Below are positions 582 to 61,700 of a DNA stretch of 64,000 bases, piece after piece. The stretch spans positions 13,210-77,209 of the forward strand of contig CAZDOJ010000001.1 in NCBI GenBank assembly GCA_964507055.1, read 5' to 3'. The notes below the pieces were generated by a model. It did no database searches. It was not told the origin of the DNA and saw nothing but the letters and a program-made list of their open reading frames with translations. The position numbers were made by a program, and so were the translations under genes. The DNA is from an uncultured Gammaproteobacteria bacterium (GTDB lineage: Bacteria; Patescibacteriota; Microgenomatia; Levybacterales; UBA12049). Position 1 is the first letter of the stretch; each line of letters starts with the position of its first letter.

Positions 582-1328
582 TTATTGACAGCTTGCTCCT
601 CGTGCTCCGTTTGTGTCACATCCTGGTCCGACCGTAACTTGGAAAGAGGCAGGGGGACCATTCAATGGATACGTAATTGCGTATCCTGGGGGGAGGGAAG
701 TATATGAAATTGTCACTGTTCCAGCAGCAAGGTTGGAAATTGTAAATGTTCCATCGGTATTATTTGTTACAGTTCCTCGGGATGCAGTAATTGATGGTGT
801 TCCATTATAGTTTGCTTCACCATTATCCTTATATCCGTTTTTATTCGTATCACTATAAACTGATCCAGCAATTGTATAGACTACTTGTGATGGTGTAGGC
901 GTTGCTGTTGGTGCTGCTGGTGGAGGGAATCCTACATTCATAATAAGATTGCCACAGTTATTCGGGGTGTTACTACATCCTCCATTTGCTTGAAAACTTT
1001 TTGATTGCGACGTTGTTCTGCCATCAGGTAACCGGACCGTAGCTGTGCATGTCGTAAGAGGCATTTGTCCGAGATTAAAACTTCCTGTGGCATCAACTGT
1101 GGTTGTTCTATTTGCATATCCTGAACAGACAGCAGTTATTGTTGTTCCTATTGCTGGAGTATCTATACCACTGTCATAACTGATGATACTTCCTCCACGC
1201 TCATACCATATACGGCCATAGATTTCATTTGTTGCAGCAAAGGCATATTCAGATGAAAAAATTGCGATGGATAAGGGAAAGAACAATAAAAAGATGAAGG
1301 TGAGTTTCCTTAAATGAAACTTATGCAT
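582..1328 (-). CDS. secreted surface protein with SdrD-B-like repeat
   Basis: 248-aa ORF with an N-terminal hydrophobic signal (LTFIFLLFFPLSIAIFSSEYAFA), a PT linker, and the pattern YSDTNKNGYKDNGE...GTFTISNLAAGTVTISY. Confidence 0.65.
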   Translation of the reverse strand: MHKFHLRKLTFIFLLFFPLSIAIFSSEYAFAATNEIYGRIWYERGGSIISYDSGIDTPAIGTTITAVCSGYANRTTTVDATGSFNLGQMPLTTCTATVRLPDGRTTSQSKSFQANGGCSNTPNNCGNLIMNVGFPPPAAPTATPTPSQVVYTIAGSVYSDTNKNGYKDNGEANYNGTPSITASRGTVTNNTDGTFTISNLAAGTVTISYTSLPPGYAITYPLNGPPASFQVTVGPGCDTNGARGASCQ

Positions 1329-3603: not shown

Positions 3604-4812
3604 CTAGTCACCGTTCTGAACGGAGAGTTCTCGTAAGAATAAATTGTAGTCAAAACTATTCACGACACCATTATCATCGATATCAACATTTTCAACTGGT
3701 GTATGTGCTTTACATTCTTCCGTATTAAATTTAGAATTTGCATCTGCGATAGGGAGGGGATTTAATTCTCCATATCCACAATCAAGCATTGCATTGTAAT
3801 CGATGACATTTAAGAAATTATCTCCATTAGAATCACCCGCGACGAGTTGTGTGTCTGGTAATGGATTCTCTTGATCTTTCTGAATCTGCTGAATGCCTGG
3901 AACAAGTCTTCGAAGGTATCGATCGGTTTTGACCTTAATATTGTAGTTGCCAGATTCGATATCTCCCAATCCCATCTTGCCGACAAATGTTCCGGATTCA
4001 CTATCATAGGTAACTGGAGCTGAAGCACTCGCGACAATTTGATTGTCTGTATTAAAAACTTCCACAAGAAGGTTTCTTTGTGGATGGACAGGATTCTTAT
4101 TACTCAAACTATTTCCTGTAGGATTTGGATTATCTCCAGCTGCTCCAACTCCATGCATAAAGAGTGTAAATGTCACAGATGTTCCTGTTATTGTTGGCTG
4201 TGGTACGAGTGTTGCACTTGGTGTGCCAGTTGCTTCACCATTAATGACAATTGTTGCAGGAGTTGTTGAAGAAAGAACATTTTGACTTGCTTGATCGTTT
4301 GCTCCAGAGGAAAGTGCTTGTGACATACTGCCGAACGTAACTGTTGTAGGAGTTCCATTGGTTGGACCAACGGCTGTGAAGTTCACTGTCGCAACTTTTG
4401 TCTTTGTTTGCACTGCTTTTGTAGGATCAGATCCTATACTTACGGATTGGGCAATAGCTTCTGCCGTTGTTACTGGACCTTCAACACTTGAAAAGACTGT
4501 TGAATTTAATGTAATTGGATTTGCAGTGTTGAGTTGGACTTTGGTTGGATCATAGGTGATTTGGTATTTAACGAAGGTAATGAGGTTTGTTCCCGGATCA
4601 ACAGTAATATCGAGGGCGATAGGATCTCCAACATTTTTCGTCAATGGAGCTGCTGTCGTTGATGAAGGCTCAAAAGAAAGCGTTGTAGAGCCTGCTGCTT
4701 TTTGTCGTATGTCTTGTCTTTGAGAAAGTATGGAGATCGTTAATGGGATAGTAAGAAGTACTGCAACAGCAGCGACAATTAGAAAAATTTTCTTCTTATT
4801 TGAAGTGTTCAT
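3604..4812 (-). CDS. surface protein with cohesin-like N-domain and dockerin-like C-terminus
   Basis: N-terminal TM or signal segment (IFLIVAAVAVLLTIPLTISIL). Cohesin-like segment (PIALDITVDPGTNLITFVKYQITYDPTKVQL). The C-terminal ~170-aa module is homologous to that of 1381-3600 and includes GDSNGDNFLNVIDYNAML and DIDDNGVVNSFDYNLFL. Confidence 0.7.
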   Translation of the reverse strand: MNTSNKKKIFLIVAAVAVLLTIPLTISILSQRQDIRQKAAGSTTLSFEPSSTTAAPLTKNVGDPIALDITVDPGTNLITFVKYQITYDPTKVQLNTANPITLNSTVFSSVEGPVTTAEAIAQSVSIGSDPTKAVQTKTKVATVNFTAVGPTNGTPTTVTFGSMSQALSSGANDQASQNVLSSTTPATIVINGEATGTPSATLVPQPTITGTSVTFTLFMHGVGAAGDNPNPTGNSLSNKNPVHPQRNLLVEVFNTDNQIVASASAPVTYDSESGTFVGKMGLGDIESGNYNIKVKTDRYLRRLVPGIQQIQKDQENPLPDTQLVAGDSNGDNFLNVIDYNAMLDCGYGELNPLPIADANSKFNTEECKAHTPVENVDIDDNGVVNSFDYNLFLRELSVQNGD

Positions 4813-4952
4813 ATATTACTTTATTTTACGACCGCTAGACACCATAATGCGGCGTAATTTAATCGTATAGAAGAACTAGGTTGGTGTCAAGAAGTTTTTG
4901 CTGTTGGTTTTGTCTCTTTTCAAAGTGCAAGTGACGTGTTACACTTTTCGTG

Positions 4953-5522
4953 ATGATTTTATCTGACGGAGATATCAAAAAAGCCCTCGCCAGCAAGCGA
5001 ATTGTTATCAAGCCAGCTCCCAATTTGGATGAGCAATTAGGTTCGTGTTCTATTGATTTACGCCTTGGAAAAGAATTCCGAGTCTTTGATCACAGCAAAC
5101 ATCCATTCATCGATCCTTCCAAAAAAGACTACAGTAATGAGATAACCAAAGTTGTAAAAGTAAATAAAGATGGAGACTTTATCATGCAGCCTGGCGAATT
5201 TGTTCTTGCTGTAACTTTGGAAAATGTGAAGATTCCATCGGATATGATGGGACGACTTGAGGGACGATCTTCACTTGGTCGTTTGGGATTGGTAGTTCAT
5301 TCAACAGCATCTACTTTTGATGCAGGTTGGGACGGAAAACCAGTACTCGAATTAGGTAATCTTGGGCGAATGGCAATTAAATTAACCCCTGGGATGAGAA
5401 TTTGTGCAATGGTTTTTGAAGAACTGACATCACCAGCTGAAACTCCATATACCAGTAAGAAATTTGCTAAGTACAAATTTCAGCAAGCACCGGAAGAGAG
5501 TAGAATCCACGAGGATAAATAA
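4953..5522 (+). CDS. dcd: dCTP deaminase
   Basis: MILSDGDI...SIDLRLG...GRLEGRSSLGRLGLVVH is the typical Dcd signature. The ATG at 4953 is preferred over the GTG at 4950 because TGtTACACT (4937-4945) lies 7 nt upstream. Confidence 0.85.
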   Translation: MILSDGDIKKALASKRIVIKPAPNLDEQLGSCSIDLRLGKEFRVFDHSKHPFIDPSKKDYSNEITKVVKVNKDGDFIMQPGEFVLAVTLENVKIPSDMMGRLEGRSSLGRLGLVVHSTASTFDAGWDGKPVLELGNLGRMAIKLTPGMRICAMVFEELTSPAETPYTSKKFAKYKFQQAPEESRIHEDK

Positions 5523-5565
5523 AGCTTTGTCATTCCGAGTTTATTTCGGAATCTTCGTAAAGTAG

Positions 5566-5595
5566 ATCCTGAAGCAAGTTCAGGATGACATTTTT
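5566..5595 (+). terminator. putative intrinsic terminator after dcd
   Basis: 8-bp stem ATCCTGAA/TTCAGGAT (5566-5573 and 5579-5586) with a 5-nt loop. TTTTT follows at 5591-5595. Confidence 0.45.
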
Positions 5596-5600
5596 ACTAT

Positions 5601-6281
5601 ATGTCATACAATATCTCACTTGATTTAGACTTCAAAAGAAATCCACATAAAGGGAGATATTTTGCCTTAGAAGGAATTGATGGAAGTGGCAAAACTTACC
5701 AGACAGATGCACTGACTCAGTATTTTCAGAAGAAAGGTAAAGAAGTAATCGTTGCCCGAGAGCCTCGAAAAGAACACGGCGTCCTGCATGAAGTTATTGC
5801 AAACGTGTTACTCGGAAAAATCAAAATGTCTCCATTGGCTTTGCAATACTTATTTACTGCAGATCGTATCCTCAACCAAGAAGAAACAATCATTCCCGCA
5901 CTTAAGGATGGAAAGATCGTCATTGCGGATAGATCATTTTGGTCAATTATCCCGTACGCTTTATCGGATTTGAAATTGGATTTTACGACAGACGCAACCA
6001 ATTTTATGTTGATGGGTCAGGGGATTTTATCGTCGTATCACCAGACAGTCATTCCGGATAAGATTTTATTTTTGGACATTTCAGTTGATACTGCAATGGA
6101 ACGATTGTCCGGCAAATCCGAAGCAAAGGAAATTTATGAGAAGCGAAGTAAAATCGAAAAACATCACAAAGGATATCATTGGCTTCTCGAACATTATGCT
6201 GATCAATTCTCAATAATCGATGGAGAATGTTCACAAAAAGAAGTAACTGAAAAGATTGTTAAGGAATTACGCAACCAATGA
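5601..6281 (+). CDS. tmk: thymidylate kinase (bacterial type)
   Basis: P-loop FALEGIDGSGKTYQ, followed by VAREP and DRSFWS as in dTMP kinases. Confidence 0.8.
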   Translation: MSYNISLDLDFKRNPHKGRYFALEGIDGSGKTYQTDALTQYFQKKGKEVIVAREPRKEHGVLHEVIANVLLGKIKMSPLALQYLFTADRILNQEETIIPALKDGKIVIADRSFWSIIPYALSDLKLDFTTDATNFMLMGQGILSSYHQTVIPDKILFLDISVDTAMERLSGKSEAKEIYEKRSKIEKHHKGYHWLLEHYADQFSIIDGECSQKEVTEKIVKELRNQ

Positions 6282-6967
6282 AGGGAAAATTAATTGTCAT
6301 CGAAGGGATCGATAGTTCAGGAAAAACAACACAGCTCAAACTACTTCAGCAGCATCTCGAAATAAATAAGATTGCATTTCAAACCGTCGACTTCCCGCAA
6401 TACCAAACATCATTTTATGGCAAAATGATTGCGCGTTTTTTACGTGGAGAATTCGGTCCGTTGCATTATGTGAGTCCATACATTATTTCAGTGATCTATG
6501 CACAAGATCGGGGAAGGGCAAAAGAAGAAATGTATCGGTGGTTGGATGAGGGCCAATTCGTTTTATCAAATCGCTATGCTACATCGAGTATGGCTCACCA
6601 GACTGGACGTTTCCCGATTCGTCAACGGAACGCTTTCGTCAAATGGCTTGAGGAATTGGAATATAAAGAAGTAGGGATTCCTCGCGAAGATATTGTTTTG
6701 TTCCTTGATGTTCCAATTAAAACTGCACAAAAATTAATGCGTAATGATAATCGCATTCAAGAGTATAGAAAAGGTGCAAAAAAAGATATGGTAGAAAAGA
6801 ATAAAGAGTACTTACAGCATTCTGCAGATACATACGAGTGGCTCACCAAAAAATTTCCTCACTGGATCCGGATCAAATGTACAAATAAAAAAGGTGAGAT
6901 GAAAAGTCGCGAAGAGATCCATGAACTTATCAAAAAAACACTTGCAAAGAAGGGCATTATCAAGTAG
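6278..6967 (+). CDS. thymidylate kinase paralog (eukaryote/archaea-like type)
   Basis: IVIEGIDSSGKTTQ P-loop, then VDFPQYQTSFYGKMIARFLRG. Overlaps the upstream tmk by 4 nt (ATGA). Confidence 0.7.
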   Translation: MKGKLIVIEGIDSSGKTTQLKLLQQHLEINKIAFQTVDFPQYQTSFYGKMIARFLRGEFGPLHYVSPYIISVIYAQDRGRAKEEMYRWLDEGQFVLSNRYATSSMAHQTGRFPIRQRNAFVKWLEELEYKEVGIPREDIVLFLDVPIKTAQKLMRNDNRIQEYRKGAKKDMVEKNKEYLQHSADTYEWLTKKFPHWIRIKCTNKKGEMKSREEIHELIKKTLAKKGIIK

Positions 6968-6984
6968 AGTAGAGAAATAAATTT

Positions 6985-7524
6985 ATGATCCTCAGTCCCA
7001 AAACATTACTCGAATTGGTTGAAAAAGAAAAGCTTGTTGAAAACCTTTCAGAGCGAGAATTAAGCAATCCTGAAGGAACAGGGTTTGATTTGCGTCTTGG
7101 TGAAGTCTTCAAGATTTCAGGAAGTGCATTTCTCGGCGAGACTCACAGAAAAACTCCAGATATCGAATCAGTCATGGTCTACGATGAAAAAAAACCACAG
7201 GCAATTAAGATTGCACCAGGCGATTTCTTTCTCGTCAAAACAATTGAAAAGATAAATCTTCCAATAGATCTCTCAGCAGTTATTTTGCCAAGAACAACGA
7301 CATTTCGATCAGGACTTTTCATCCGTACGGGTCCAATTCAACCAGGATATTCTGGTGAATTAACATTTGGTTTGAAAAACGAAGGACCTGTGACAGTTGA
7401 AATTGAGATGGGTGCACGTTTTGTCCACCTCATCTTCCACGAAATTAAAGGCGAAGGTAGCCAATACCGCGGCCAATGGCAAGGCGGACGTGTGTCTGCA
7501 ACAAAGGTTGAGAAACAGGTGTAA
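6985..7524 (+). CDS. dCTP deaminase/dUTPase-superfamily protein (second copy)
   Basis: MILSPKTL...GFDLRLGEVF...PRTTTFRSGLFIRTGPIQPGYSGELTFGLKN matches the dcd/dut fold pattern. Confidence 0.7.
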   Translation: MILSPKTLLELVEKEKLVENLSERELSNPEGTGFDLRLGEVFKISGSAFLGETHRKTPDIESVMVYDEKKPQAIKIAPGDFFLVKTIEKINLPIDLSAVILPRTTTFRSGLFIRTGPIQPGYSGELTFGLKNEGPVTVEIEMGARFVHLIFHEIKGEGSQYRGQWQGGRVSATKVEKQV

Positions 7525-7586
7525 TTGATTCTTCTAATAAGCGATGCAGTAACTATCGTGCTAGCTTCAATGTTATAATGTATGAG

Positions 7587-8303: not shown

Positions 8304-8352
8304 ATATTTTCCCACTTGAAACATCGCTTCAAAAAAGGTTATAAATAACACT

Positions 8353-10165: not shown

Positions 10166-10205
10166 GATATTGTTTTTGTGACAGGCTTTCTGCTATATTT
10201 GTCAC

Positions 10206-12555: not shown

Positions 12556-13407
12556 CTAGAGCTGGCTTCCACCGCTGCTTCCACTTCCGCCGCCACCGCC
12601 GCCTTTATTGTGGGCGAGAACGCCATCTGCGTAGAAGTTATTATGTCCACTTACTTTCTTGAGATTATATGCCTGTACTGGACCAGGGAAATAATCCATC
12701 CTAGTAATCGCGACATATTTTCCTGAATCTTTCAATACTTTGTCTCCGACTTTAAGAGGTTTTACTTTCAATACAGCATTCTCTTGAGCTGTTTTCTCTG
12801 GAGAAATAGATTTCCAACCTTCTGATGTGTACAGTGGATGTTCATTCGTTACACCAAGAACAGTTCCATCAGCGAGTTTGACATTATAATGATGATCGCG
12901 AAGTGGGGCATCCATTTCTTGTACTTTTACTGCAACTTGCTTCTTGCCATCATACCCGATGACACTATCTCCAACTTTTACATCTTCGATATTCTTTTCA
13001 GAATAATCAGCCATTAAGATCTTTGTTCCAGCTACGAAGCATGTGCTTCCACCGCCGCCACCGCCGCCACCACCTGTTGCAGGAGGCTGAGGAGTCGGAG
13101 TTGGAGTTGGGGTTGGTGAAGGAGTCGGTGTTGGTGTAAGTGTGATGCCAGGAAAATCTTCAAGCTGGAGATTTGATTTTCCGTCAGTATCGTCACCACG
13201 TTGGATAATAACTGGTTGACTATCATCTGGGGAAGCAAACTTAGGAGCAGAATTGCCGAGCATCATAACGCCGCCGCCAATGACAATTCCTAGGAAAATG
13301 ATTGCATAGATGGTACCAGCACCTACAGCGCCACGAGATTTTTTAACCTTTAATAAAAGTGCGTTTTTAGGTTTTCGAGCAGTAGTAGTTTTCTTTTTAG
13401 CGGGCAT
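12556..13407 (-). CDS. membrane-anchored protein with PT linker and Hint (bacterial intein-like) domain flanked by poly-Gly
   Basis: TM segment (IYAIIFLGIVIGGGVMML), linker TPTPTPSPTPTPTPTPQPP, then G9-ST-CFVAGTKIL...TNEHPLYT...NFYADGVLAHN-K-G6. Confidence 0.8.
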   Translation of the reverse strand: MPAKKKTTTARKPKNALLLKVKKSRGAVGAGTIYAIIFLGIVIGGGVMMLGNSAPKFASPDDSQPVIIQRGDDTDGKSNLQLEDFPGITLTPTPTPSPTPTPTPTPQPPATGGGGGGGGGSTCFVAGTKILMADYSEKNIEDVKVGDSVIGYDGKKQVAVKVQEMDAPLRDHHYNVKLADGTVLGVTNEHPLYTSEGWKSISPEKTAQENAVLKVKPLKVGDKVLKDSGKYVAITRMDYFPGPVQAYNLKKVSGHNNFYADGVLAHNKGGGGGGSGSSGGSQL

Positions 13408-13478
13408 AGAAAAGCTCCTACATCCAGATTACTCTGAAAATTATTGCTCTGTCAAGCGACATTTTTCATGATTAAGGG

Positions 13479-13507
13479 TTGCATCAAGCTCAACTCTCTA
13501 GTATAAT
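13479..13507 (+). promoter_or_regulatory. canonical sigma-70 promoter of rpsB (TTGCAT-17-TATAAT)
   Basis: TTGCAT at 13479-13484, a 17-nt spacer, and TATAAT at 13502-13507. This would give a ~68-nt 5' UTR. The UTR contains the 8-bp inverted repeat CATTCAGC/GCTGAATG (13523-13530 and 13555-13562) and a GAAGGA SD at 13569-13574. Confidence 0.6.
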
Positions 13508-13581
13508 GACAGTTATCTTACACATTCAGCAGATATATCCTGAACCCACATATAGCTGAATGGAAGTTGAAGGATATTATT

Positions 13582-16838: not shown

Positions 16839-16937
16839 ACAGTCTTATCGTATCGTACTTCAACCATATGAAGCAAGTGAAGAAAGCTAAATAAACCTAT
16901 TGTGTGCAGAGTTTAAAAACCTGCTATAATTATTTCT

Positions 16938-22165: not shown

Positions 22166-22194
22166 TTGACTTACCCAGCTATTTTAGCTACAAT
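22166..22194 (+). promoter_or_regulatory. sigma-70 promoter TTGACT-17-TACAAT driving the T-box leader
   Basis: TTGACT at 22166-22171, a 17-nt spacer, and TACAAT at 22189-22194. Confidence 0.6.
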
Positions 22195-22200
22195 AATGAC

Positions 22201-22437
22201 ATAAAGCGTCGGAGTTTGGCTTCCTACCAAACAAATTTCATTTTTTGAAACGCTGACTGTGGGTTTACAAGAACGAAGCAGTACGGAAAGCTTGACCGTA
22301 AAAATAAAGAAACTGTAATCGTTTTCAAAGAGAAAACAGAGCCAGTTAGTAAGATTTCTTTAGCAATAAGGAAATAAACCAAGGTGGTACCACGAGATTA
22401 CCTCGTCCTTGAGCAGTAACAAGGAGGGGGTTTTTTT
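22201..22437 (+). promoter_or_regulatory. T-box riboswitch leader
   Basis: AAGGTGGTACCACGAG at 22381-22396 matches the T-box consensus GGTGGTACCGCG and overlaps a terminator. Stem-I-like distal hairpin TACGG-AAAGCTTGA-CCGTA. Located upstream of an aaRS gene. Confidence 0.65.
22401..22437 (+). terminator. T-box terminator hairpin + U7
   Basis: CCTCGTCCTTG (22401-22411) pairs with CAAGGAGGGGG (22420-22430) with one G-G mismatch. TTTTTTT at 22431-22437. The 3' arm contains the AGGAGG SD of the next ORF. Confidence 0.65.
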
Positions 22438-22809
22438 GTGTCTGAAAAATATAGAGGAATAACAATTGAAATTAAATTAACTGGTCCAAATGCTGAAGCA
22501 TTCCTAGCAAAGAATGGAAAGTTCGGAAAAACATTTAGGGATGAAAACGGGCACTATCTTGTCGGAAAATTTTCTGGAAGAAAAAGAAGATCCGTTCTTG
22601 GAACCACTGATATAGTATTTGGTTTGGTTAAAGAAACAGAAAATCGTGAAGTTATTCTTATCGGTGGAATCTTGGGAAATAAAGGTAAGGGGAGGCGGGT
22701 TTCTGTCTCCAATGAAGAGGGAATTGGCACACAGCAATTGAGAAAAGGTATTGATTTAATAGTCCAAACCGATGCACCGGTTGCATTATTTGAAAATAAT
22801 ATACGCTAA
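22438..22809 (+). CDS. hypothetical protein (T-box controlled)
   Basis: 123-aa ORF with a GTG start 10 nt after AGGAGG (22422-22427). No recognisable motifs. Confidence 0.5.
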   Translation: MSEKYRGITIEIKLTGPNAEAFLAKNGKFGKTFRDENGHYLVGKFSGRKRRSVLGTTDIVFGLVKETENREVILIGGILGNKGKGRRVSVSNEEGIGTQQLRKGIDLIVQTDAPVALFENNIR

Positions 22810-22830
22810 TGATTATGCTATACTAACTAC

Positions 22831-24912: not shown

Positions 24913-24991
24913 CCCATTTTTCGAACTTTGGTGTCAAGTGTTTCGCTCTATATTTGACGCTTCACAAAACTTCTTCTATAATCGCAAGATT

Positions 24992-27016: not shown

Positions 27017-27052
27017 TCTTTTATTCTTGATAAGTGCTATAATACTACTTTT

Positions 27053-37666: not shown

Positions 37667-38845
37667 ATGAATACTCCAGAAAATCCACGATATAAAGGAC
37701 CTGATAGATCAGGGAAAGTTGAGAGAGCTCCCCATGTTGAAACACCATTTCAAGAAGCAGTGCGTTTGGCTACAGCACTACATCGTGCAGATCCGAATCG
37801 TATCTATCAAGGATTTGGGAGGTATGACGTATTTTCAGACACGCCTGGTGTTTCAGGTGTACATGAGGTGCATGTGGATCCTTTGGATGTAGATCAGAAA
37901 GGGACGCATGGGTTCGTCTTTCCTTTCGATGAAGAAGTTGAAGGAGAACAAGTTGTCGGATCTGTACGATTTTTTATCAAAGATGGGTTGATGCATGCTG
38001 ATCCTACAAAGATTTGGGAAGCAAATGCTATGCGTGCATTAGACGAGGAGTTCGGACCCGATCATGTGGATGAGTTGGGTTTTCCTGAGCAATCTGGTGC
38101 TTCAGAGAGGTTTGTTGCGGAATCTCAAGTCCTTGCATCTGTTCAAGCGGAATGGGAGAACCATTTTCAAACAGCCGCGAGTGCACTTGCCCTTGGCTCA
38201 GTTCGAGAAGTATTAAATCAGATAAAAGCCACGTATAGTGAATTGCTTCCAAAAGAATTAGGTTTTGATGATATAGATGTATCCGCTCTCGATTATGATA
38301 GCGTCATAGCTCATGTAGGTCTAGCAGCTGAACACCTTGTGATATCAACGATACATTATAGCGAATGGCACGATGGACAAAATACCTATAATCTTACAAC
38401 GGAAAAAGATAAAACTGGAGCAGTGACAGATATTAGCTTCAAACACGCACACCGAATGGCGGATGATATGGCGGTCACGCATACTATTCGTGATTGGACA
38501 TTTACTGCTGATGGAGAATATTGTGCTGGATCGTATCAACAATTAGCTCCTTTTGCGGAGTATCTTGAAGATCCTGCTCAACTCCAAATGGTTTCGGCTC
38601 ACAACAAAACGCAGATGGACGAGCGAATCCGAGAAGCAGATCTTGGTGAAGATATTGCTGACACGCTACAAATACAAGCAGGAATTGATTTGCTGAAAGA
38701 TCCAAAACATTTTAAAATTCTCCAACCAGTACTTAATAAAGGAGATGTACTTTTTCCCGAAGAAGAATCCTTAGATCAGCGGCATGAACAGATTGATTGG
38801 AGTGGAGAGGATGATCAAGATATTGGTCCACATAGATCGTTATAA
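37667..38845 (+). CDS. tail-family protein T9 (distant family B)
   Basis: C-terminus HEQIDWSGEDDQDIGPHRSL. Lies only 5 nt after the T8 stop, so it is probably co-transcribed. Confidence 0.85.
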   Translation: MNTPENPRYKGPDRSGKVERAPHVETPFQEAVRLATALHRADPNRIYQGFGRYDVFSDTPGVSGVHEVHVDPLDVDQKGTHGFVFPFDEEVEGEQVVGSVRFFIKDGLMHADPTKIWEANAMRALDEEFGPDHVDELGFPEQSGASERFVAESQVLASVQAEWENHFQTAASALALGSVREVLNQIKATYSELLPKELGFDDIDVSALDYDSVIAHVGLAAEHLVISTIHYSEWHDGQNTYNLTTEKDKTGAVTDISFKHAHRMADDMAVTHTIRDWTFTADGEYCAGSYQQLAPFAEYLEDPAQLQMVSAHNKTQMDERIREADLGEDIADTLQIQAGIDLLKDPKHFKILQPVLNKGDVLFPEEESLDQRHEQIDWSGEDDQDIGPHRSL

Positions 38846-38846
38846 T

Positions 38847-39899
38847 ATGGTAGAAGCATACAGAAATAATAAGGAGCGTAATAAAAAACCTTTCACTATG
38901 GTACTTCTTGATCACGGTGCTGCTCGTCCTTCCGAAATAGCAGTTTGGAAAAATCATATTGTGACCCTTCTCAATAGAGATCCTTCTCATCATGGGAAAA
39001 TAGTAGTCTTCACAGAAAATGCTGCCGGCACAATCAGCAACGCTAATCGTGTGCAAAATAAAATTCGTAACGGGAAACTACCTACAAAAGCTTCCATTGA
39101 AGCAGGCCTTGAAGAGATTGCCGCAGCTGGAAGAATATTAAATGTTCCTGAAGCAGAAGCACACGCTATCGCACAAGAGGGACTTGAAGAAGGATTTGAT
39201 GGTGCAATTTTTCCCATACTTGATGATCTTCACCGGGAGCATGGAGAAAGAGTCGTTTGGATAGATGAAGCACATCCTTTATCAACGCATGAGAAAGGTA
39301 TAGCCTTCTTGGATACTGGATTTTTTATAGATCCTCCTTACGGGACGACTTCTCAATCCGAAATTGCTGATTGGTATCGTGAGAATTTTCGAAAAAACTC
39401 AGAATTTGATAGAGAGCGAGAAAATAATATAAGCCAAGCTTTGGCTGAACAGCTCGATGATCCCAATATTATTGGTGGCGTCGGGGTGATGGGATATTTC
39501 CATACCCGCGTTGTTCATAATTTGGCACGAAATGGCTATGCGGCTCGCAATGTTTTTCCAGAAAGAGAAGGAAGAAACTTTCACTTTAGTCCTAATACCT
39601 ATCTGCATAGAATGATTCATTTCTTTCCAGATCGTCAAATTACCGATGCAGATGTCCAAGATGCTTTAAGTGTAGGTCAATATACTGGGACTTTACTAAG
39701 AAGTGAAGGACGTGATCCTGCGACATTGAGTATTCAAGAAAGAAACAAAGTAGGCAATGAAATTTTGCATATCAGAGGGAAAGCACGTCAACGAGAGCTT
39801 CAGATATTTGATTCATCAGAAGCACTTGGAGATCATAATGATGAAATTGATTGGGCTGGGAATGATGAGCCTGATGAGGGACCTAAAAGGTCTCTTTAA
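38847..39899 (+). CDS. tail-family protein T10 (family A, H/E/E/H paralog)
   Basis: The MVEAYRNN start at 38847 is preferred over track 38784, which overlaps T9. Family A blocks: FTMVLLDHG, GKIVVFTENA, VGVMGYFHTRVVHNL, NVFP. C-terminus NDEIDWAGNDEPDEGPKRSL. Confidence 0.85.
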   Translation: MVEAYRNNKERNKKPFTMVLLDHGAARPSEIAVWKNHIVTLLNRDPSHHGKIVVFTENAAGTISNANRVQNKIRNGKLPTKASIEAGLEEIAAAGRILNVPEAEAHAIAQEGLEEGFDGAIFPILDDLHREHGERVVWIDEAHPLSTHEKGIAFLDTGFFIDPPYGTTSQSEIADWYRENFRKNSEFDRERENNISQALAEQLDDPNIIGGVGVMGYFHTRVVHNLARNGYAARNVFPEREGRNFHFSPNTYLHRMIHFFPDRQITDADVQDALSVGQYTGTLLRSEGRDPATLSIQERNKVGNEILHIRGKARQRELQIFDSSEALGDHNDEIDWAGNDEPDEGPKRSL

Positions 39900-41019: not shown

Positions 41020-41054
41020 TTGCTTTTTGTGCCCAATTTGTTACAATACCGCCT

Positions 41055-42089: not shown

Positions 42090-42116
42090 TCAAAATGAAT
42101 TTGGTATAATCCCCAC

Positions 42117-43289: not shown

Positions 43290-43319
43290 TTATTATTTAA
43301 AAAGAATATAATCCCGTCA

Positions 43320-44514: not shown

Positions 44515-44550
44515 CCTGTAATAGTTAAATAGTATATTTTTTGTTATAAT
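44515..44550 (+). promoter_or_regulatory. island junction promoter: CCTGTAATAG-N20-TATAAT (T15)
   Basis: Box at 44515-44524 and TGtTATAAT at 44542-44550. ATG follows 6 nt later. Confidence 0.55.
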
Positions 44551-44556
44551 CCTTCG

Positions 44557-46401
44557 ATGGTAGAACAATCAAGAAGAATTGCACCACAGGGAAGTCGTAC
44601 TTTTCGTGGTACAGATGTGTCCGCAATGCATGCAGAAATGCAAGGTATCCTTACGGCTTCGAGAGATAATGATCCGCATGCCTCCACAATAGACTCATAT
44701 AGAAAGATTGCTGATGCACTTCCTCTACGGGTTCCAGCTGCTACATACCAAGCCGTTAGTGAATCTATCAATAATCCTGATCCCGTGATTTCAAAAGCTG
44801 GGAAGGAAGTTTTTACTTGGCTAAATATAAAGACTGTAATTTCAGTTGCAGAAAGATATTCGGGAGAAGGTTTGGGAGATGTTGAAGATTTCGCTCAGGA
44901 AGGGGTTACTATCCTTTATGAAAATGTAGACACAATTCATCAGAGGGCAGATAGTTCTATGTATACTTATCGTTTGGCTGAAGAGGCTCTGACTAATAGT
45001 ATTGCTCGTGAGCATGGATTTAGTGTTACTATGAGCGAAAATAGAGTTGCATTACCTATTGGTCAGACCGTGACTGAATTATTTGATAATGCTCCCTTAG
45101 GGGTTGATGAAGTAGGGCTTGAAAGGCAAGCAGTAGTATTAGCACAGAAATTTGGAATTACTGAAGATGCTGCATTTAAATATCTCTCAAGGAGGAGTGC
45201 ATTGCAGCCAATTCACGAAAGTAAGATGCAGCCAGAACGTGAGGATACAGAGGTAATAGAAGATATTATGGTTTTAGATGAGCTTCTGAGGATGCTTCCT
45301 GAAAGGAATGAACAAATGCTGCGGATGAGATTTGGGAATGGTTTTACACTAGATGAAATTGCCCAACGCTACAACCTGGTTCCTGAACGTGCTCGTCAAA
45401 TAATTGCTAAAACAATTAAATCATTACAGCATGAGCAAGTTATCGATTTTGTTACAGGGGGAGTTAAACCCGCATCTCGAAGTCAGCGAATAATGACATC
45501 AGATGGAGAAGAGGGGCAGGATATTGAAGATGTCATCCGCGAAAAGCGTTTGGCTGGATATGGTGAATCTGGATCAGGTTCGTGGGCTGAATCTAGAAAG
45601 GAATTGGCTAATATTGCACATGCATTCTTAGCTGAGCCGCAAATTGGGTATCCGGAAATTGCAAATAGGCTTGGAATTACAGTAGATAAAGTAATTTATA
45701 GTGTACAAACTCTTCGTTCAAAATATTTGTTACCAGATGCTAATGCAGGTAAGCATGCAAAAATAACTCCCGATGATGGCAACAGAACATTGCAGGAAAG
45801 ACTACATTCACGATATGAAAGACAAGAATCCGAGATTGTAGTTCCGCCAATTCAGGGGGAAAGAGAAACAAGTACTATCCCAGCAATTGAGGACACTTCT
45901 TCTAAATCGAAACCACCATCAGAAAGAACACTTCGTGCTTTAATTTTGCAAAAACAAGCGTGGAAGTTACAGCAAGAAGACGGAAAAACGTACGATGAGA
46001 TTTCTGAAATACTCAATGTTAGTCTAGGATCCATACGAAGATATCTTCAAAACGAACGGCGAGACCTTGGTCTTGCAAATCAGACGAATGTCGGACGTCC
46101 TAAAGATCCTGAGGTGCAAGCTAGAAGAGCCGTTTTGGCTGAGAGAATTAAAGCTGGTGAGCCTCTTAGAGTTCATGGATTTGCTAAAGAGTTTGGTACT
46201 ACTGTAGGTACTATAAATTTTGATATACGTGAAATTTTGAGTGGATATCATACTTCTTCATCAGAGACAACAATATTTTCTCAAGAAGAACATGCTTCGC
46301 AACAGCCTAAACTTGAGGAGCCAGAGGTTACGATCGCTGATGTAGCTGTCGATTGGGATGGTACCGATGATCCTGAAGCAGGTCCTCAACGAACTTTATA
46401 A
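44557..46401 (+). CDS. tail-family protein T15: sigma-70-family N-terminal half + extra HTH modules
   Basis: Region 2-like NIKTVISVAERYSGEGLGDVEDFAQEGVTILYENVDT. Region 4.2-like LPERNEQMLRMRFGNGFTLDEIAQRYNLVPERARQIIAKTIKSL. Further HTH-like segments are present. C-terminus VAVDWDGTDDPEAGPQRTL. Confidence 0.8.
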   Translation: MVEQSRRIAPQGSRTFRGTDVSAMHAEMQGILTASRDNDPHASTIDSYRKIADALPLRVPAATYQAVSESINNPDPVISKAGKEVFTWLNIKTVISVAERYSGEGLGDVEDFAQEGVTILYENVDTIHQRADSSMYTYRLAEEALTNSIAREHGFSVTMSENRVALPIGQTVTELFDNAPLGVDEVGLERQAVVLAQKFGITEDAAFKYLSRRSALQPIHESKMQPEREDTEVIEDIMVLDELLRMLPERNEQMLRMRFGNGFTLDEIAQRYNLVPERARQIIAKTIKSLQHEQVIDFVTGGVKPASRSQRIMTSDGEEGQDIEDVIREKRLAGYGESGSGSWAESRKELANIAHAFLAEPQIGYPEIANRLGITVDKVIYSVQTLRSKYLLPDANAGKHAKITPDDGNRTLQERLHSRYERQESEIVVPPIQGERETSTIPAIEDTSSKSKPPSERTLRALILQKQAWKLQQEDGKTYDEISEILNVSLGSIRRYLQNERRDLGLANQTNVGRPKDPEVQARRAVLAERIKAGEPLRVHGFAKEFGTTVGTINFDIREILSGYHTSSSETTIFSQEEHASQQPKLEEPEVTIADVAVDWDGTDDPEAGPQRTL

Positions 46402-46442
46402 TTTATCTTTCCGCCTCATCCTATGGTATAATCTTGCCCAAT

Positions 46443-48695: not shown

Positions 48696-48731
48696 AAATG
48701 TCAGGTTTGTTGAGCTAAATTTTGCTATAAT
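48693..48731 (+). promoter_or_regulatory. junction repeat TAGAAATGTCAGGTT + TGcTATAAT (T17)
   Basis: A 15-mer at 48693-48707 that includes the T16 stop codon and is identical to 50766-50780. The -10 element is at 48723-48731. Confidence 0.55.
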
Positions 48732-50768: not shown

Positions 50769-50804
50769 AAATGTCAGGTTCACTACAATGAAGTTTGTTA
50801 TAAT
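50766..50804 (+). promoter_or_regulatory. junction repeat TAGAAATGTCAGGTT + TGtTATAAT (T18)
   Basis: A 15-mer at 50766-50780 that includes the T17 stop codon. The -10 element is at 50796-50804, with the ATG 6 nt later. Confidence 0.55.
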
Positions 50805-50810
50805 CCCCAA

Positions 50811-53528
50811 ATGAAAGAACGATTTCGAGAAAGACGTATACAAAGGGAGGTTTTACGACATCATCCTGATCCGGGCGAACAGGATAAATTTTCGCAAGGT
50901 GGAGCACATCCTGAAGTTCCTGGTGAACGGAGAGAAAGAGTATCGACACAGAAGATTGATGAACTCCTGGCAGGAGTGTTTAATAATGAATCCAAGATGA
51001 TTGTCCTTGGTGGGATGATCCTCAATCCTCACTGGTATTCAGATCAGCAGCTTCATGATATGACAATGCGGATGCAACGAGGAGAGCGAGGATGGGGCAT
51101 TGGAAATCACATTCCCTTTGGTTACTGTCAGGATTCTTTTGATGATATCGGACTTGTTGCAAAAAATGAAATCGATGGGGCTCGCGATAGTTTAAAATAT
51201 CATGTGACCCAAGATGGTATTAGTGCACTTCCTGCTATTGGTCATCTACTTTCGTTTGTTGAAGAATCAGGCATCTCTTTGCATAGAACTTTCTCAACAA
51301 CGAGTACTCCTTCTTCAGCAGCGAGTATTGATTCTGAGGAAGAACATAATGATGATCGTGACATACGAAAACGTGCACCAAAGACAAGGTATAGAATTTT
51401 TAAACAATTACTTGCTCATGAAGGACCAATACAAAAAGTTGATTTACAAGAAAATCTCAACGTGAATGGGAGTTCTCTCGGGCACCATTTAAGAAACCTC
51501 AGTATTGAAGGTATGCTTGACTATCAAAGCTATTATGATGGTGAACCACTCGCTGTTACATATCGCATCAATGCAGATGCTTTTCAAAAGATAAACTATG
51601 ATGATCTTCCACGAGATGCAAGATCAACGATTACAACGATTACGAGACGAGTTGCTTTTATTGCTGCTCATATGGAAGGGACTGTTACTCCTGCTAAAGT
51701 GCATGAAAAATTGCTTGCTCTGTATCCTCAATATGCAGAGAGAACTGAGGGTCATGTTCGAAGCAGCGTGAATCGTGCCTTAACGCATCTTGCAAAACAT
51801 GAGTATCTACAGCGAGGAGAGATCTCTGCAGATCGTCCTTCATTAATCTCTTTAACTGATGAGCAGCGAGAAAGAATGCAACAACTTGTAACGATCATCG
51901 ATACATTCCAATCAGGTGATCCCGAATTCTTAGCACAAGGTGAGCAAAAAGCCCGCGAAATTTTAAATGATCCTCAAAGAGTAGCACGATTAATGAGACA
52001 CGCACAAGAAAATTCTAGAATAGCATTAGCTTTGGGGCCTGCGGAGTTAAAACAGATGATCATCGAAATCATTAAAGATAGTGACACACCATTATCCGGA
52101 GCGAGAATTGTGCCGTTGATGGACCATCGGATTGGACAGCCGTATGCAACAGCTTTATTAAAGCAATTATATGATGGTGGTGAAATAGCCTTGGTAAGTG
52201 AAGGAAGATCAAAATGGTATGGAAAACTTCAAGAAACAGGAGGTGTTGACGCATTACCCGAAGATAGAGATGGGTTAAGATCATCACTGCAACAAGTTAC
52301 TGCTGAATTTCAGCCATACGAAAATGGCCTGGGGCTTTTATTTGCTGCTTTAGACACGCATGATCCAGCGTCAGCAGATGCCCGAGAGGTTTTAAATCAG
52401 ATTGAATATGTCCGCATGGATCCTGAATATCGAAGACTTAAAGGTAGAATCGACACTATACAAGATAGGCTGGAGAGTTTCGCTGATGAAATTGAAGATG
52501 AAGCAGTTGCGGACGAAACTCAGGTTAGAAAAAGAACACCACGCCAAAGTTCGGTCGTCATTCGCCAACGGATAGATGCTTTTAGGGATTTAGGGATTAC
52601 CAATCAAAGCGAAATTGCACGTTGGATGGGCTTCTCTCCTGATAGTTTGAAATATCATTTCCAGTCGATGGACGATACGCTTAATAGAGCAATATCTCCT
52701 GAGCGAATGGCAAAAATTGATATATCCAGAGCATTGCGTGATCAGGATCAATTAACTCCCGCACAAATTGCAGAACGGATGGGTACCACTGAGAGTACAG
52801 CTCGTGCATATCTCGAACTTGCAGATGATGCTGAAAGGCTTGCAAATCAACGCGAAGTAACTTCTCCTTATCAAGATCGCCTTGTTAGAGTCCGCGAAAT
52901 GGAAGAAGAGTGGGGTGACATGATGCAAGTTACACCGATGGTTCATCAAATGGCTGCGGAGTTAGGCCTATCTGTTGCATCGATCCATAATTATCGAAGA
53001 GAACTTTTTGCGACACGTGCTCGAGCAGCAAGAGTACGGGAAGGCCAAATAGAACAGGTCCGAGCGATGACTGAAGAGTTACAGCAGCTTCCTAACCAAG
53101 AACGTGTATTAGTGATTGCTGAAAGACTAGGATTAAATCGATCAACTGTATATCGCTTTCAAGATAAAGCATTTGGAGTTGCAGAGCAAAGAAAAGTAGG
53201 AATTGCTGAGCGACGTGCACGGGTTGCCCAGCGTTCAGAAGAGCTTCGTGCAATGGGAATCCCTATAAAAGAAGCTGCAAAAGTTATTGCTGAAGAAGAA
53301 GGTGTCTCTCCTGGGACGATAATGTTGGACAGAAGAGCTTTATTACAATCACAGCGAGAAGCCACACAAGCAGAAAATCTATCATCTTCTGTAGAAGAAA
53401 CCATTGTTTATGAGGCAGATCATAGCTTGCCTGATCTTTCGTCAGAGCAATCATTAAATACCTTCAATGAAACAATTGACTGGTCTGGTGAAGATGATCC
53501 GGATATTGGACAACACAGGACACTTTAG
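50811..53528 (+). CDS. tail-family protein T18 (family C, multi-HTH)
   Basis: At least 5 HTH-like segments: IARWMGFSPDSLKYHF, IAERMGTTESTARAYL, MAAELGLSVASIHNYR, IAERLGLNRSTVYRF, IAEEEGVSPGTIMLDR. C-terminus ETIDWSGEDDPDIGQHRTL. Confidence 0.85.
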   Translation: MKERFRERRIQREVLRHHPDPGEQDKFSQGGAHPEVPGERRERVSTQKIDELLAGVFNNESKMIVLGGMILNPHWYSDQQLHDMTMRMQRGERGWGIGNHIPFGYCQDSFDDIGLVAKNEIDGARDSLKYHVTQDGISALPAIGHLLSFVEESGISLHRTFSTTSTPSSAASIDSEEEHNDDRDIRKRAPKTRYRIFKQLLAHEGPIQKVDLQENLNVNGSSLGHHLRNLSIEGMLDYQSYYDGEPLAVTYRINADAFQKINYDDLPRDARSTITTITRRVAFIAAHMEGTVTPAKVHEKLLALYPQYAERTEGHVRSSVNRALTHLAKHEYLQRGEISADRPSLISLTDEQRERMQQLVTIIDTFQSGDPEFLAQGEQKAREILNDPQRVARLMRHAQENSRIALALGPAELKQMIIEIIKDSDTPLSGARIVPLMDHRIGQPYATALLKQLYDGGEIALVSEGRSKWYGKLQETGGVDALPEDRDGLRSSLQQVTAEFQPYENGLGLLFAALDTHDPASADAREVLNQIEYVRMDPEYRRLKGRIDTIQDRLESFADEIEDEAVADETQVRKRTPRQSSVVIRQRIDAFRDLGITNQSEIARWMGFSPDSLKYHFQSMDDTLNRAISPERMAKIDISRALRDQDQLTPAQIAERMGTTESTARAYLELADDAERLANQREVTSPYQDRLVRVREMEEEWGDMMQVTPMVHQMAAELGLSVASIHNYRRELFATRARAARVREGQIEQVRAMTEELQQLPNQERVLVIAERLGLNRSTVYRFQDKAFGVAEQRKVGIAERRARVAQRSEELRAMGIPIKEAAKVIAEEEGVSPGTIMLDRRALLQSQREATQAENLSSSVEETIVYEADHSLPDLSSEQSLNTFNETIDWSGEDDPDIGQHRTL

Positions 53529-53534
53529 TAGCAG

Positions 53535-53570
53535 CCTGTAGTAGAATTTTGAGCCTAAATTTGGTATAAT
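53535..53570 (+). promoter_or_regulatory. island junction promoter: CCTGTAGTAG-N20-TATAAT (T19)
   Basis: Box at 53535-53544 and TGgTATAAT at 53562-53570. ATG follows 6 nt later. Confidence 0.55.
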
Positions 53571-58798: not shown

Positions 58799-61700
58799 CT
58801 ACTTACCTAACTTTGGTGGCCCATCGTCTTTGCCTTTTTCATTTTTCTTTTCCATTTCATTGTAAAGTTCAACTTCTTGCTCCATAGTAAGTGGTGCATC
58901 TAATTCAGGACGAGGTTTTGGTTCAATTGCTGTTGTTTGTCCTCCAAGTACTTGTTTATCCGTTGGTGTGATATTTTGCGTTGGCTTAACTGTCTCTCCT
59001 TCAATAACAAATGAATCAGGTCTTCTTGCTAGTTCTCCACGTGGTTTTGGTCCAAGTCTTGGCCGTAGTGCTTCTATCTGTTTTGCAGTGACCAACTCAA
59101 CAAAGATTGGTCTACCATTTTTAAGTGCTACAATTCCTGTAAAGTCAGGCAATCTTGTAATATCTTCAGGTCTGACGATTGGTTCCCGTACGTCCTCATC
59201 AGTTTTTGTTGTTACAGTGATTTCTGGAATTCTTTGGCTTGGGTTCGTCGTCCTACTTATCTCTCCGCCTTTTCCTCGAGTAGTCGTTGTGCTGCGAGGC
59301 GTTCTATGTGCTGGAGTTGTTGCTTTACTTTCTTTTGTTACGGTACGAGTATGTTGTCCGAAATATGCACTAAATTCGTCAACAGTGGCTTTGTCATCAA
59401 GATTTGGGAGGAGTAATCTACCACCATGACTGTTACTTCTTACTGTAACATATCCATCTTGGGTCCAAATTCTTCGAGCCTGTCCACCATCTTGTATTGC
59501 CCCGAGATATTGCTGCCATCTCTTTCGAGAAAGTGCTAAGAATTGATCGTAGTTACGAATTGGTGCAATATGAGGCAATTCGTCCAGAGCTCCAAGCATT
59601 CGTGGTCCCATAGGTAATCCTTCGACACCGCGTCTTTCTGAATTTTCACCATGTGCTCTAAAATGTGTCATAAGATGTGCAAGGAAGAGCCCTCGGTATC
59701 GTTCTTGATCTGATTCGTGAGCCATCATATAAAGTGATGGACGATTTTCAAAGGTATCATCACTATACATAGTATTGGGATCAATTTCATGTACTTTCGT
59801 TGCATCTTGCACTTTTGGATCTGTCCAAGGTTCAAGTGCTTGGCGTGCCATTGTAATAGCTGATCGTGCGTTTTCTGCACCCGTTCGTAAACCTTCTTTT
59901 AAGTCGAGAAGTGCATTCCATGCCTGGACTGAATCTGATCGGAGTGCCAGACCTTCTCTAATTTTTTCTTGGTCACCGTAAGCTGCACCCTCAGCAATTA
60001 TTCTTCGTGCTTCACCTTCCTGCCATACACAGAATCCAGCAAGTTTTGGTAGGGGACTAAGTTGTCCTTTGATTGTAAAGCGTTGAGCGGCTTCAAGAAC
60101 GTGACCCATATGTCGGGGAGATTCCATATTATATCGTCCGTTGATATACAGTAATGGAGTCATCAACATACGTGCTTGACTATGCCAATAGTCCATATTG
60201 GAGTCGCTATCATTACCTTTGCTTATTCCACTGATAAGTTCGTTTGCAATTTTCATTGACTCAGACCATGTCCGTGTATGTTCAAGTGGATTCCATCGAT
60301 GGGTGCCTTCTCCTGAAGTATCAAGCGGATCCCATCTGTATACATCTCCATGAGAACGAGCCCAACCTTCAGTTTTTTTCCAGATTTCACTTCCAACAGC
60401 TGTTGATATCACCAGACCTCGTCTTGCGAGAATATTTGGAACAATGATTGATTCTGATTTACCTTGTCCTGTTGGTCCAACAACAAGTCCATGTCCACCT
60501 TCTCCTCCAGCAATGAGTCTTCCGCTACTTCGTCCCCAGATGATCCTGTCTCCGAGTTTATCTATGTTTCTGCTTGCGAAATAATCTTGTCTAGACATTT
60601 CTCTTCGTGTAGGCCAACCATATTCTGGATCTCCACGTCGACTTCTGCGACGCATTGCACGTGTATCATCGATCATCTGTTGGACGACAAAATCAACCCC
60701 ATCTCTCATTGCTCTCATAATTTCTGACTGGCTTCTGAATTCTGTTTGTTCAGTTATTCTTGTAGGACCATCGATATCTGGCATTCGTTCAGGGCGGGGA
60801 ATAACTCGTGTTCTTAGATGTTGAGGTTCTCTTCTTGTTGGGTTTGTTGAGGCTTCAGTAACCACTGGCTTTGCGTTGTCAGGGTGAGCTGGTTCTTTAC
60901 CCGTAGCGGGGACCACCAATACACCATTAACAAATTTCAGTTTTTCTGTTTGCTCCTCAACGGGAATATTTGGTGTACCGTCGAGTGGGATCGTACCTCG
61001 AATTTTGTCGGGAGTTAATGTGCTGAGGTCTTCTCCTGCAGGTACAATAATAAGATTCCCTTCATGAACAACAAGTCGTGCATTTGGGATTGAGCGTCGT
61101 TCTGTCCAGTGTACTTCGACTGTCTCAGCTTTTTCTCCACCGGACCAAAGGCGAATAGTTGTGTGCTCATTAACTTTTGTTTCAAAATACGTACCTTCCT
61201 CAGTTGACCTCTTTATTGCATTCTCACTGATTTCTCTCCATTTTTCATTGTAATCCTTCACAACTTGAGTAGCTGGTGCTTCCATCCGTGATCCTACTTT
61301 TTGCAATTCTTTTTGTACATCAGCAGCGAAAAGATCTAGATCTGGAAGTTCCTCTATATTTGGTAAACTAGGATCTTGATTTACTTTTGTTACTGTGCCT
61401 TGTAAGTCTTTCGTGGTGGAATTTTGTGTAAGCCTAATACCAAACTCAAGCGTTTCCCATTCTTTTTGTGTGAGGGGTCCTGATTTTTCTTTTAATCGTT
61501 CGGTTAAACCTGTGAGATCTGTTTCTATATGAGCAAGTATCGTAAATGCTGCATTTTGTCTTTGCACCTGGGTTCTGATTTCCTCTGGAATCGCTTCTAC
61601 CGGAAGATCTGATAATCGTTCAATAAGTTGATAATCAATATATTTAATGAGGACATTTCCCAATACTTTCTTTTCTGTTTCGGTTAGAGATTTTAGATCT

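Follow-up and report, generated by a model that had tools for sequence, protein, structure and literature searches.

Many genes, housekeeping ones among them, in the 64-kb stretch of DNA analysed here (the window) are preceded by a sequence resembling an extended -10 promoter element, a -10 hexamer with TG one base upstream (TGnTAnnnT), that ends only 6-9 nucleotides (nt) before the ATG. This arrangement raises the question of whether the elements are promoters and, if so, whether the resulting mRNAs have any 5' leader at all. The initial annotation had listed six such elements, before dcd, ORF (open reading frame) 7587, thyA, glyA, rseP and proS, and had proposed that leaderless initiation from extended -10 promoters lacking a -35 is the default expression mode of this organism. 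The motif, its fixed distance from the start codon, the statistics, the correct start codons and the conservation in orthologues are direct observations. We consider it quite probable that most of the elements are promoters yielding mRNAs with leaders of 0-3 nt.

All six elements lie at the positions and spacings originally given. The predicted leaderless gene dcd (dCTP deaminase, 189 aa; 4953-5522, + strand) is preceded by TGTTACACT (4937-4945, +), which is followed by the 7-nt spacer tttcgtg and ATG 4953. ORF 7587, whose 238-aa product has no assigned function, follows TGTTATAAT (7571-7579, +) with 7 nt between element and ATG 7587. The corresponding elements are TGCTATATT for glyA (10191-10199, +; 6 nt to ATG 10206), TGCTATAAT for rseP (16922-16930, +; 7 nt to ATG 16938) and TGCTATACT for proS (22816-22824, +; 6 nt to ATG 22831). 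At thyA, the hexamer TATAAA (8340-8345, +; 8337-8345 with the preceding GGT) lies 7 nt before ATG 8353 and has a -35 element, TTGAAA (8316-8321), across an 18-nt spacer. A seventh housekeeping case, absent from the original list, is TGCTAGTAT (1335-1343, - strand), 6 nt from ATG 1328 of gene 582-1328 (-). The accompanying claim that none of the six listed genes has a Shine-Dalgarno (SD) sequence was also borne out, as the SD-like tetramers GGAG, GAGG and AGGA do not occur at -4 to -20 before any of them.

Misplaced start codons were ruled out by independent gene calls and by the N-termini of protein family profiles. An independent gene caller applied to public contigs of the same organism agrees for every gene examined, including the 189-aa dcd and the 238-aa ORF 7587, which places the start of the latter at ATG 7587 rather than 7578. 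Matches to Pfam and NCBIfam profiles open within residues 1-11 of the proteins as called; for example, Pfam DCD positions 1-153 match residues 2-158 of dcd, position 1 of the SHMT profile aligns to residue 4 of glyA, and the NCBIfam ProRS profiles begin at residue 1 of proS. Orthologues likewise align from residue 1, with the ATG in the same place.

Distances were measured outward from the motif, from each TGnTAnnnT site on either strand to the first ATG in any ORF of 100 aa or more, and the test is therefore independent of the analyst's choice of starts. Among the 140 sites in the window, nine fall at 6 nt, five at 7 nt, one at 8 nt, two at 9 nt and two at 10 nt, with close to zero elsewhere. 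Counted by start, the motif ends 5-9 nt ahead of 17 of the 55 such ORFs, where its genomic frequency would predict 0.30 (p ~3e-24), and the housekeeping part alone accounts for 5 observed against 0.15 expected (p ~5e-7). Control motifs (the reverse complement, permuted versions and a scrambled hexamer) gave no distance peak in the window; a register shifted to 20-24 nt upstream of starts gave none either, and at 15-45 nt upstream of the same starts TGnTAnnnT shows no excess over the rest of the window. Chance and base composition were ruled out by the reverse-complement, permuted-motif and shifted-register controls. When the same script was run on 50 kb of E. coli K-12, the picture was reversed: E. 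coli lacks a -10 peak but has a distinct SD peak at 5-9 nt, whereas the window has a -10 peak and no SD peak. In a plasmid of Deinococcus radiodurans, an organism documented to be of the leaderless type and used here for calibration, 6 of 41 annotated genes have TAnnnT at 6-9 nt. Thus, the distance distribution that had been suggested as a check is not flat and has a sharp peak at 6-7 nt in the 64-kb window, although its genome-wide scope is only extrapolated.

Flanking DNA from the same organism, 18.5 kb of sequence unused before, brings the sample to about 84 kb and contributes 15 further genes. An extended -10, or a -35 together with a -10, stands at 6-9 nt in seven of these. Three have an SD, two of them clear (AAGGAGG, AAGGAG) and one weak (AAGGAA), and the rest comprise two with a promoter 24-26 nt upstream and no SD, one operon-internal gene and two or three ambiguous cases.

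The elements are also distributed by operon position. Within the window, 34 genes have an upstream gap of 25 nt or more, and an element precedes 20 of these; among the 11 operon-internal genes, which overlap or abut the previous gene, one has any -10-like motif and none has the extended motif. By region, an element is found before 14 of 19 gap genes in an island at 24992-62551 (described below), and a strong element before 5 of 15 crude housekeeping gene calls with such a gap. Hand curation of the housekeeping part gives 6-7 of about 17 gap genes with a strong element, or about 11 when some four weak candidates (tmk 5601, tsf 14518, 15531 (-) and zwf 19686) are included; it also places a -10 at 10-12 nt from the start in 3604 (-) and gnd. 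The codon found 6-9 nt from the element in the window and in related genomes, pooled, is ATG in 95 of 104 cases (7 are GTG and 2 TTG), a preference that fits a 5'-terminal AUG as the recognition signal. In the histogram pooled from the window and 80 related loci (L004-L083), 52 distances are 6 nt, 18 are 7 nt and 16 form a secondary bump at 9 nt, which could represent 3-nt leaders or a second register of the transcription start site (TSS). The 'default' originally proposed goes too far: a -10 element at the start is the commonest mode for first genes, but it is not universal, given the 5 of 15 housekeeping genes with a strong element and the differently organised rpsB, Hint-domain, T-box and 3604 (-) loci.

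The internal structure of the elements resembles that of bacterial promoters. Of 23 promoters, 18 have TG separated from the hexamer by a single base. The six promoters without it (thyA, 24992, 29136, 33347, 43320 and rpsB) all carry TTGnnn 17-18 nt upstream, compared with 3 of the 18 that have it; for the four first compared (thyA, 29136, 33347 and 43320, with 24992 and rpsB added later) the difference, 4/4 against 3/18, gives a Fisher p of 0.005. An extended -10 and a -35 compensate each other, a textbook trade-off. The description of these promoters as lacking a -35 is accurate for those with TGn but fails for those without. The -35 is poorly conserved overall, the best score being 3.27 against 2.91 for the null. 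A scan of the window requiring both hexamers returned 52 sites against 54.1 expected from shuffled sequence, no excess, but such a scan misses the cited sites and is uninformative for the extended -10 class. With regard to geometry, a 6-nt spacer makes the A of the ATG the seventh base past the hexamer; in 49 species the mapped TSS was found 7 bp downstream of the -10 element (PMC12641261), so the A of the ATG would fall at the usual +1.

Taken as a mechanism, the elements would be promoters of the extended -10 class (TGnTAnnnT) used by the primary sigma factor, most of them with little or no -35 and those without TGn having a TTG -35 instead. RNA polymerase would start about 7 nt past the hexamer, so that the transcript would begin 0-3 nt from the A of the ATG and the mRNA would have neither a 5' leader nor an SD. 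Ribosomes would then recognise the 5'-terminal AUG directly, as they do in Actinobacteria and Deinococcus. For the first gene of a unit, housekeeping or island, this would be the most frequent single mode, and it would coexist with a minority of genes that are leadered, SD-dependent or riboswitch-controlled, with internal genes mostly overlapping or abutting the preceding stop codon.

By sequence, the source organism is placed in the Candidate Phyla Radiation (CPR, or Patescibacteria), as a Microgenomates type resembling Levybacteria and Curtissbacteria, because its glyA is closest to that of a 1.61-Mb chromosome, OZ246394.1 (90% identity), and next closest to those of Levybacteria and Curtissbacteria metagenome-assembled genomes (MAGs; 73-79% identity). 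The record of OZ246394.1 is labelled 'Gammaproteobacteria', evidently a mislabel, and many other public MAGs that are CPR by gene content and similarity are titled 'uncultured Gammaproteobacteria', 'Pseudomonadales' or archaea. Several Logan assemblies hold contigs with proteins identical to those of the window.

Orthologous starts were counted in about 80 CPR loci, scoring a -10 with at least 4 of 6 matches at 5-9 nt from the start. For dcd, 13 of 15 orthologues have such a -10 (TAnnnT), 10 of them with TGn, while none has one in the control register and none has an SD. The -10 recurs before 10 of 23 rseP orthologues (7 with TGn), 2 of 3 proS orthologues (TGCTATACT in L009 and TGATATACT in L013, at 6-7 nt), 4 of 8 for zwf, 3 of 5 for gnd and 16 of 56 for glyA, many of the last with TTGCAA 17 nt upstream. 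It is found in only 1 of 11 thyA orthologues, that of a relative with 94% identity (L004), and in none of 10 for tmk. None of the 22 rpsB orthologues has it, and 12 of these have an SD-like motif instead. Since the flanking intergenic sequence diverges between these genomes, the -10 and SD signals both look selected and gene-specific. At dcd, the promoter of this lineage has TTGTCT 24 nt upstream of the hexamer, and distant relatives have TTGTCA at the canonical 17 nt, which suggests that the promoter in this lineage came to rely on TGn.

Across 677 genes of the relatives, a start-anchored profile gives A at -11 as the strongest signal specific to genes with an upstream gap (0.49 against 0.34 background). 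T at -1 scores higher, yet is also seen in genes without a gap. If +1 is the A of the ATG, A-11 corresponds to -11A of the -10 hexamer. Such profiles are too noisy for the window itself (n = 15-19) and weak in the relatives, where just A-11 and T-1 stand out; the mode therefore covers a minority of genes there. The 6-nt distance peak appears in loci labelled Microgenomates, Saccharibacteria and Parcubacteria alike, so that the arrangement is not special to this organism.

SD sequences are rare, found before about 5 of some 61 genes in the window and flanks together. The only clear ones precede 12556 (-), rpsB, 22438 and two flank genes, and most internal genes have none. Translational coupling is suggested for the SD-less internal genes because 4 of 10 overlap the preceding stop codon. 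No 16S 3'-end motif was found in loci L001-L083. As SD sequences are present before some starts (AAGGAGG, TAGGAG), rare as they are, the anti-SD is probably retained; its loss has been reported solely in a subgroup of Parcubacteria (PMC9297842).

Could the elements be something other than promoters of leaderless mRNAs? SD motifs are scarce here and the element sits where a ribosome-binding site (RBS) would be, so that a TA-rich, non-SD ribosome-binding motif within a longer leader might produce the same picture, as in Bacteroidota (group B of the GeneMarkS-2 classification). Operon position distinguishes the two: group B motifs precede internal genes as well (PMC6028130), whereas here only 1 of 11 internal genes has the motif. 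A binding motif would also not be expected to have the full sigma-70 grammar of TG at -15/-14, TAnnnT and a compensating TTG -35 at 17-18 nt. The intergenic gaps of the island, 27-50 nt, contain no other promoter candidate, and the C-rich island spacers speak against a simple need for an AT-rich, unstructured stretch. We regard this explanation as very unlikely. A subtler possibility accepts the elements as real promoters and places initiation a few nt off, with translation beginning at a downstream start codon, or makes them secondary, internal promoters beneath leadered main transcripts. Spacers of 8-10 nt do exist, proS lies 640 nt downstream of a T-box promoter, and the TAGAAT of zwf (19686) falls inside the 3' end of the preceding gene. 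However, downstream starts would truncate conserved domains, given that profiles and orthologues begin at residues 1-11, and so strong a preference for ATG at exactly 6-7 nt would be unexpected if that ATG were irrelevant. Many genes, such as dcd and rseP, moreover have a divergent or convergent gene on their upstream side and so cannot be served by a co-directional promoter further up. This, too, we hold to be unlikely. There is hardly any chance, finally, that the pattern belongs to the mobile island (24992-62551) with AT-rich coincidences accounting for the housekeeping cases. The island does have the highest density and the most consensus-like elements, but the housekeeping excess described above stands on its own, almost none or none turn up in control registers or with control motifs, and orthologous housekeeping genes of other genomes retain the elements.

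Several points nevertheless weigh against reading the elements as start-site promoters of leaderless mRNAs, or limit how far that reading extends. Promoter activity and the exact TSS are predicted from E. coli-type rules, and leaderless translation initiation is likewise a prediction. The thyA hexamer, without TGn and without the final T, is the weakest of the six cited sites, poor and unconserved, and the -10 of proS may be merely a secondary, internal promoter. Six island genes have 8-10-nt spacers, which imply leaders of 1-3 nt or an unusual start point. Counts from the island are not independent because some of its genes and upstream modules are paralogous, although the housekeeping statistics and the orthologue footprint are unaffected by this. 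In the relatives, about 20% of gap genes have the element against 6-7% in the control register, a modest excess, and the loci are all glyA neighbourhoods, so that orthologous promoters were counted repeatedly. With 64 kb plus 18.5 kb of the genome seen, 'genome-wide' is an extrapolation.

Four loci in the first part of the window are organised differently and are counter-examples to a leaderless default. The rpsB gene has a -35, TTGCAT (13479-13484), a 17-nt spacer, TATAAT (13502-13507) and an SD, GAAGGA (13569-13574), before ATG 13582 (13479-13581, +), with a predicted leader of about 60-70 nt. A Hint-domain gene (12556-13407, -) has the SD TAGGAG 8 nt before ATG 13407 (13408-13420, -) and would likewise be leadered. 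Divergent from dcd, a two-hexamer promoter, TTGACA-17-TACGAT (4862-4890, -), serves gene 3604-4812 (-); its TACGAT ends about 45-50 nt before ATG 4812, the predicted leader is about 43 nt without an SD, and TATACGAT of this promoter is kept in relatives.

The fourth is a probable T-box (22166-22437, +), in which a promoter, TTGACT-17-TACAAT (22166-22194), is followed by the putative T-box leader (22192-22413), AAGGAGG (22421-22427) and GTG 22438. The match to Rfam RF00230 has E = 1e-6 and 36 bits, below the gathering score of 93, and no Rfam family exceeds its gathering score in the window. The leader, of about 230 nt, contains the T-box core AAGGUGGUACCACG and a terminator hairpin with a T-run (U-run in the RNA). 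Within the terminal loop of the short stem I, CUUCCUA, lies the Pro codon CCU; a T-box of such reduced form would be of interest in a CPR genome. Downstream of it come AAGGAGG, a 123-aa ORF (22438-22809) and then proS, about 640 nt from the T-box promoter. Because a probable T-box with its own promoter precedes the 22438 ORF and proS, proS may be under dual control.

The island begins with 20 consecutive plus-strand genes (24992-57275) that have no Pfam hits in the window scan. It is probably a conjugative or mobile element, because a gene for a TraG/VirD4-like coupling protein of 1250 aa with T4SS-DNA_transf and TraG-D_C domains (58799-62551, -) adjoins this run; the coupling-protein gene itself has TGTTATAAT 28 nt before its ATG and no SD. 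Along the plus-strand run, the first element consists of a -35, TTGACG, a 17-nt spacer and TATAAT without TGn (24954-24982, +), 9 nt before ATG 24992, the start of a gene called at 674 aa. Three further hexamers lack TGn, each with a -35 at 17 nt: (TCC)TATAAT with TTGCAA (29119-29127, +; 8 nt to ATG 29136), (CTT)TATAAT with TTGCGA (33332-33340, +; 6 nt to ATG 33347) and (GAA)TATAAT with TTGTAA (43304-43312, +; 7 nt to ATG 43320). The remaining elements, all on the plus strand, include several identical to those of housekeeping genes: TGCTATAAT at 27035-27043 (9 nt to ATG 27053) and 48723-48731 (6 nt to ATG 48738), and TGTTATAAT at 44542-44550 (6 nt to ATG 44557) and 50796-50804 (6 nt to ATG 50811). 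The others are TGATATACT at 32156-32164 (6 nt to ATG 32171) and 33739-33747 (7 nt to ATG 33755), TGTTATACT at 35099-35107 (8 nt to ATG 35116), TGTTACAAT at 36330-36338 (9 nt to ATG 36348) and 41039-41047 (7 nt to ATG 41055), and TGGTATAAT at 42102-42110 (6 nt to ATG 42117), 46424-46432 (10 nt to ATG 46443) and 53562-53570 (6 nt to ATG 53577). These promoters are nearer to consensus, with TATAAT in 12 of 16, and seven of their spacers begin with CC (as in CCCCnn), in contrast to the T/A-rich spacers of housekeeping genes. The suggestion that island promoters form a specialised subset of the same style is thus a fair one. Start-site promoters would also explain how some 20 island genes spaced only 27-50 nt apart can be expressed separately.

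Other features of the island deserve mention. Of the 20 proteins encoded in 24992-57275, 19 share a C-terminal tag of about 20 aa, ...(I/V)DW.G..D.D.GP.(R/K)(S/T)L-COOH, and are otherwise mostly unrelated or distant paralogues; it might mark them for secretion or transfer by the adjacent coupling protein, which resembles those of type IV secretion systems (T4SS). At 29006-29059 (+), TGTTATAAT, 6 nt and an ATG open an ORF of just 12 codons (MPNIVGRDWRGI), and the sequence upstream (..TAGAATGTCAGGT..) shares homology with the intergenic promoter module of 48738 and 50811; the site is probably what remains of a lost island gene. Precomputed Pfam annotation contains Sigma70_r4/HTH matches in 44557-46401 (+; unmarked, weak) and 50811-53528 (+; faint), and the two products may be island-encoded transcription factors for the island's own promoters. 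Two ORFs, 37667-38845 and 38784-39899 (both +), overlap by 62 nt in different frames, with no promoter-like element before 38784; a frameshift, an error of gene calling or a programmed overlap might account for this.

The first 25 kb of the window, which has a G+C content of about 40%, contain housekeeping genes. These include genes of nucleotide and folate metabolism (two dcd-like, two tmk-like, thyA, folA and glyA) and of translation (rpsB, tsf, frr and proS), as well as rseP, pgl, zwf and gnd. No tRNA or rRNA genes were found in the 64-kb window. The two dCTP-deaminase-like and two thymidylate-kinase-like genes at 4953-7524 (+) cluster with thyA, folA and glyA, and such a doubling of dTTP-pathway genes is unusual for a reduced genome.

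A broader hypothesis is that leaderless mRNAs from -35-independent extended -10 promoters are a major, conserved mode across the whole of the CPR/Patescibacteria, with SD initiation near-vestigial in this Levybacteria-like lineage; we put this forward tentatively, as possible though somewhat less than probable. If it is true, the CPR would join Actinobacteria and Deinococcus-Thermus as a third large bacterial clade rich in leaderless genes, and the trait might be linked to the reduced ribosomes of these organisms. This raises the question of how initiation proceeds on CPR ribosomes, which lack several proteins and rRNA helices, and whether leaderless initiation of the 70S type is favoured. In practical terms, start calling in thousands of CPR MAGs would need a dual model, with either a promoter at the start or an RBS, as SD-based callers would misplace starts. 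For genetic work on the few CPR that can be cultivated, a minimal TGnTATAAT-N6-ATG module could serve in expression cassettes. Full-text searches for 'leaderless' together with names of CPR groups turned up no paper describing this mode in the CPR, the supplementary tables of GeneMarkS-2 lying outside their reach. The architecture and the extended -10 class are already known, and the CPR lineage as their bearer may be new.

How does this arrangement compare with known systems? Extended -10 sigma-70 promoters of E. coli and Gram-positives share the TG one base before the hexamer (-15/-14) and the same division of labour, with the -35 weak or absent where TGn is present and a TTG -35 where it is not, but here the promoters are placed systematically with the predicted +1 on the start codon. 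Bacteroidota (group B) are alike in the scarcity of SD upstream of genes and differ in that their motif precedes internal genes, where it cannot be a promoter, whereas the motif here is confined to genes with a gap. Archaeal leaderless genes (group D) would resemble these in having mRNAs that start at the start codon, yet their TATA box lies about 22-26 nt upstream, in contrast to a bacterial -10 at -12 to -7. The closest likeness is to group C of GeneMarkS-2, whose leaderless first genes have a Pribnow box 6-8 nt before their starts while other genes rely on different initiation signals, the same 6-8-nt spacing being reported for the predicted leaderless genes of M. tuberculosis; the group is often met with among Actinobacteria and Deinococcus-Thermus but seldom among Proteobacteria and Firmicutes (PMC6028130). 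The window has the same -10 at 6-8 nt from first-gene starts and likewise a mixed regime, in which some other genes have predicted leaders and RBSs. Its predicted leaderless share of first genes is comparable or higher, at 33-60% in the housekeeping part and 74% in the island (and 7 of 15 genes in the flanks of the same organism) against the 25-50% reported. SD sequences among the remaining genes are very rare here (about 5 of about 61 genes), whereas group C is described as having RBSs for internal genes. It further differs from group C in the very high frequency of TGn (18 of 23 promoters) and in its bearer, a CPR/Patescibacteria lineage of low G+C (about 40%).

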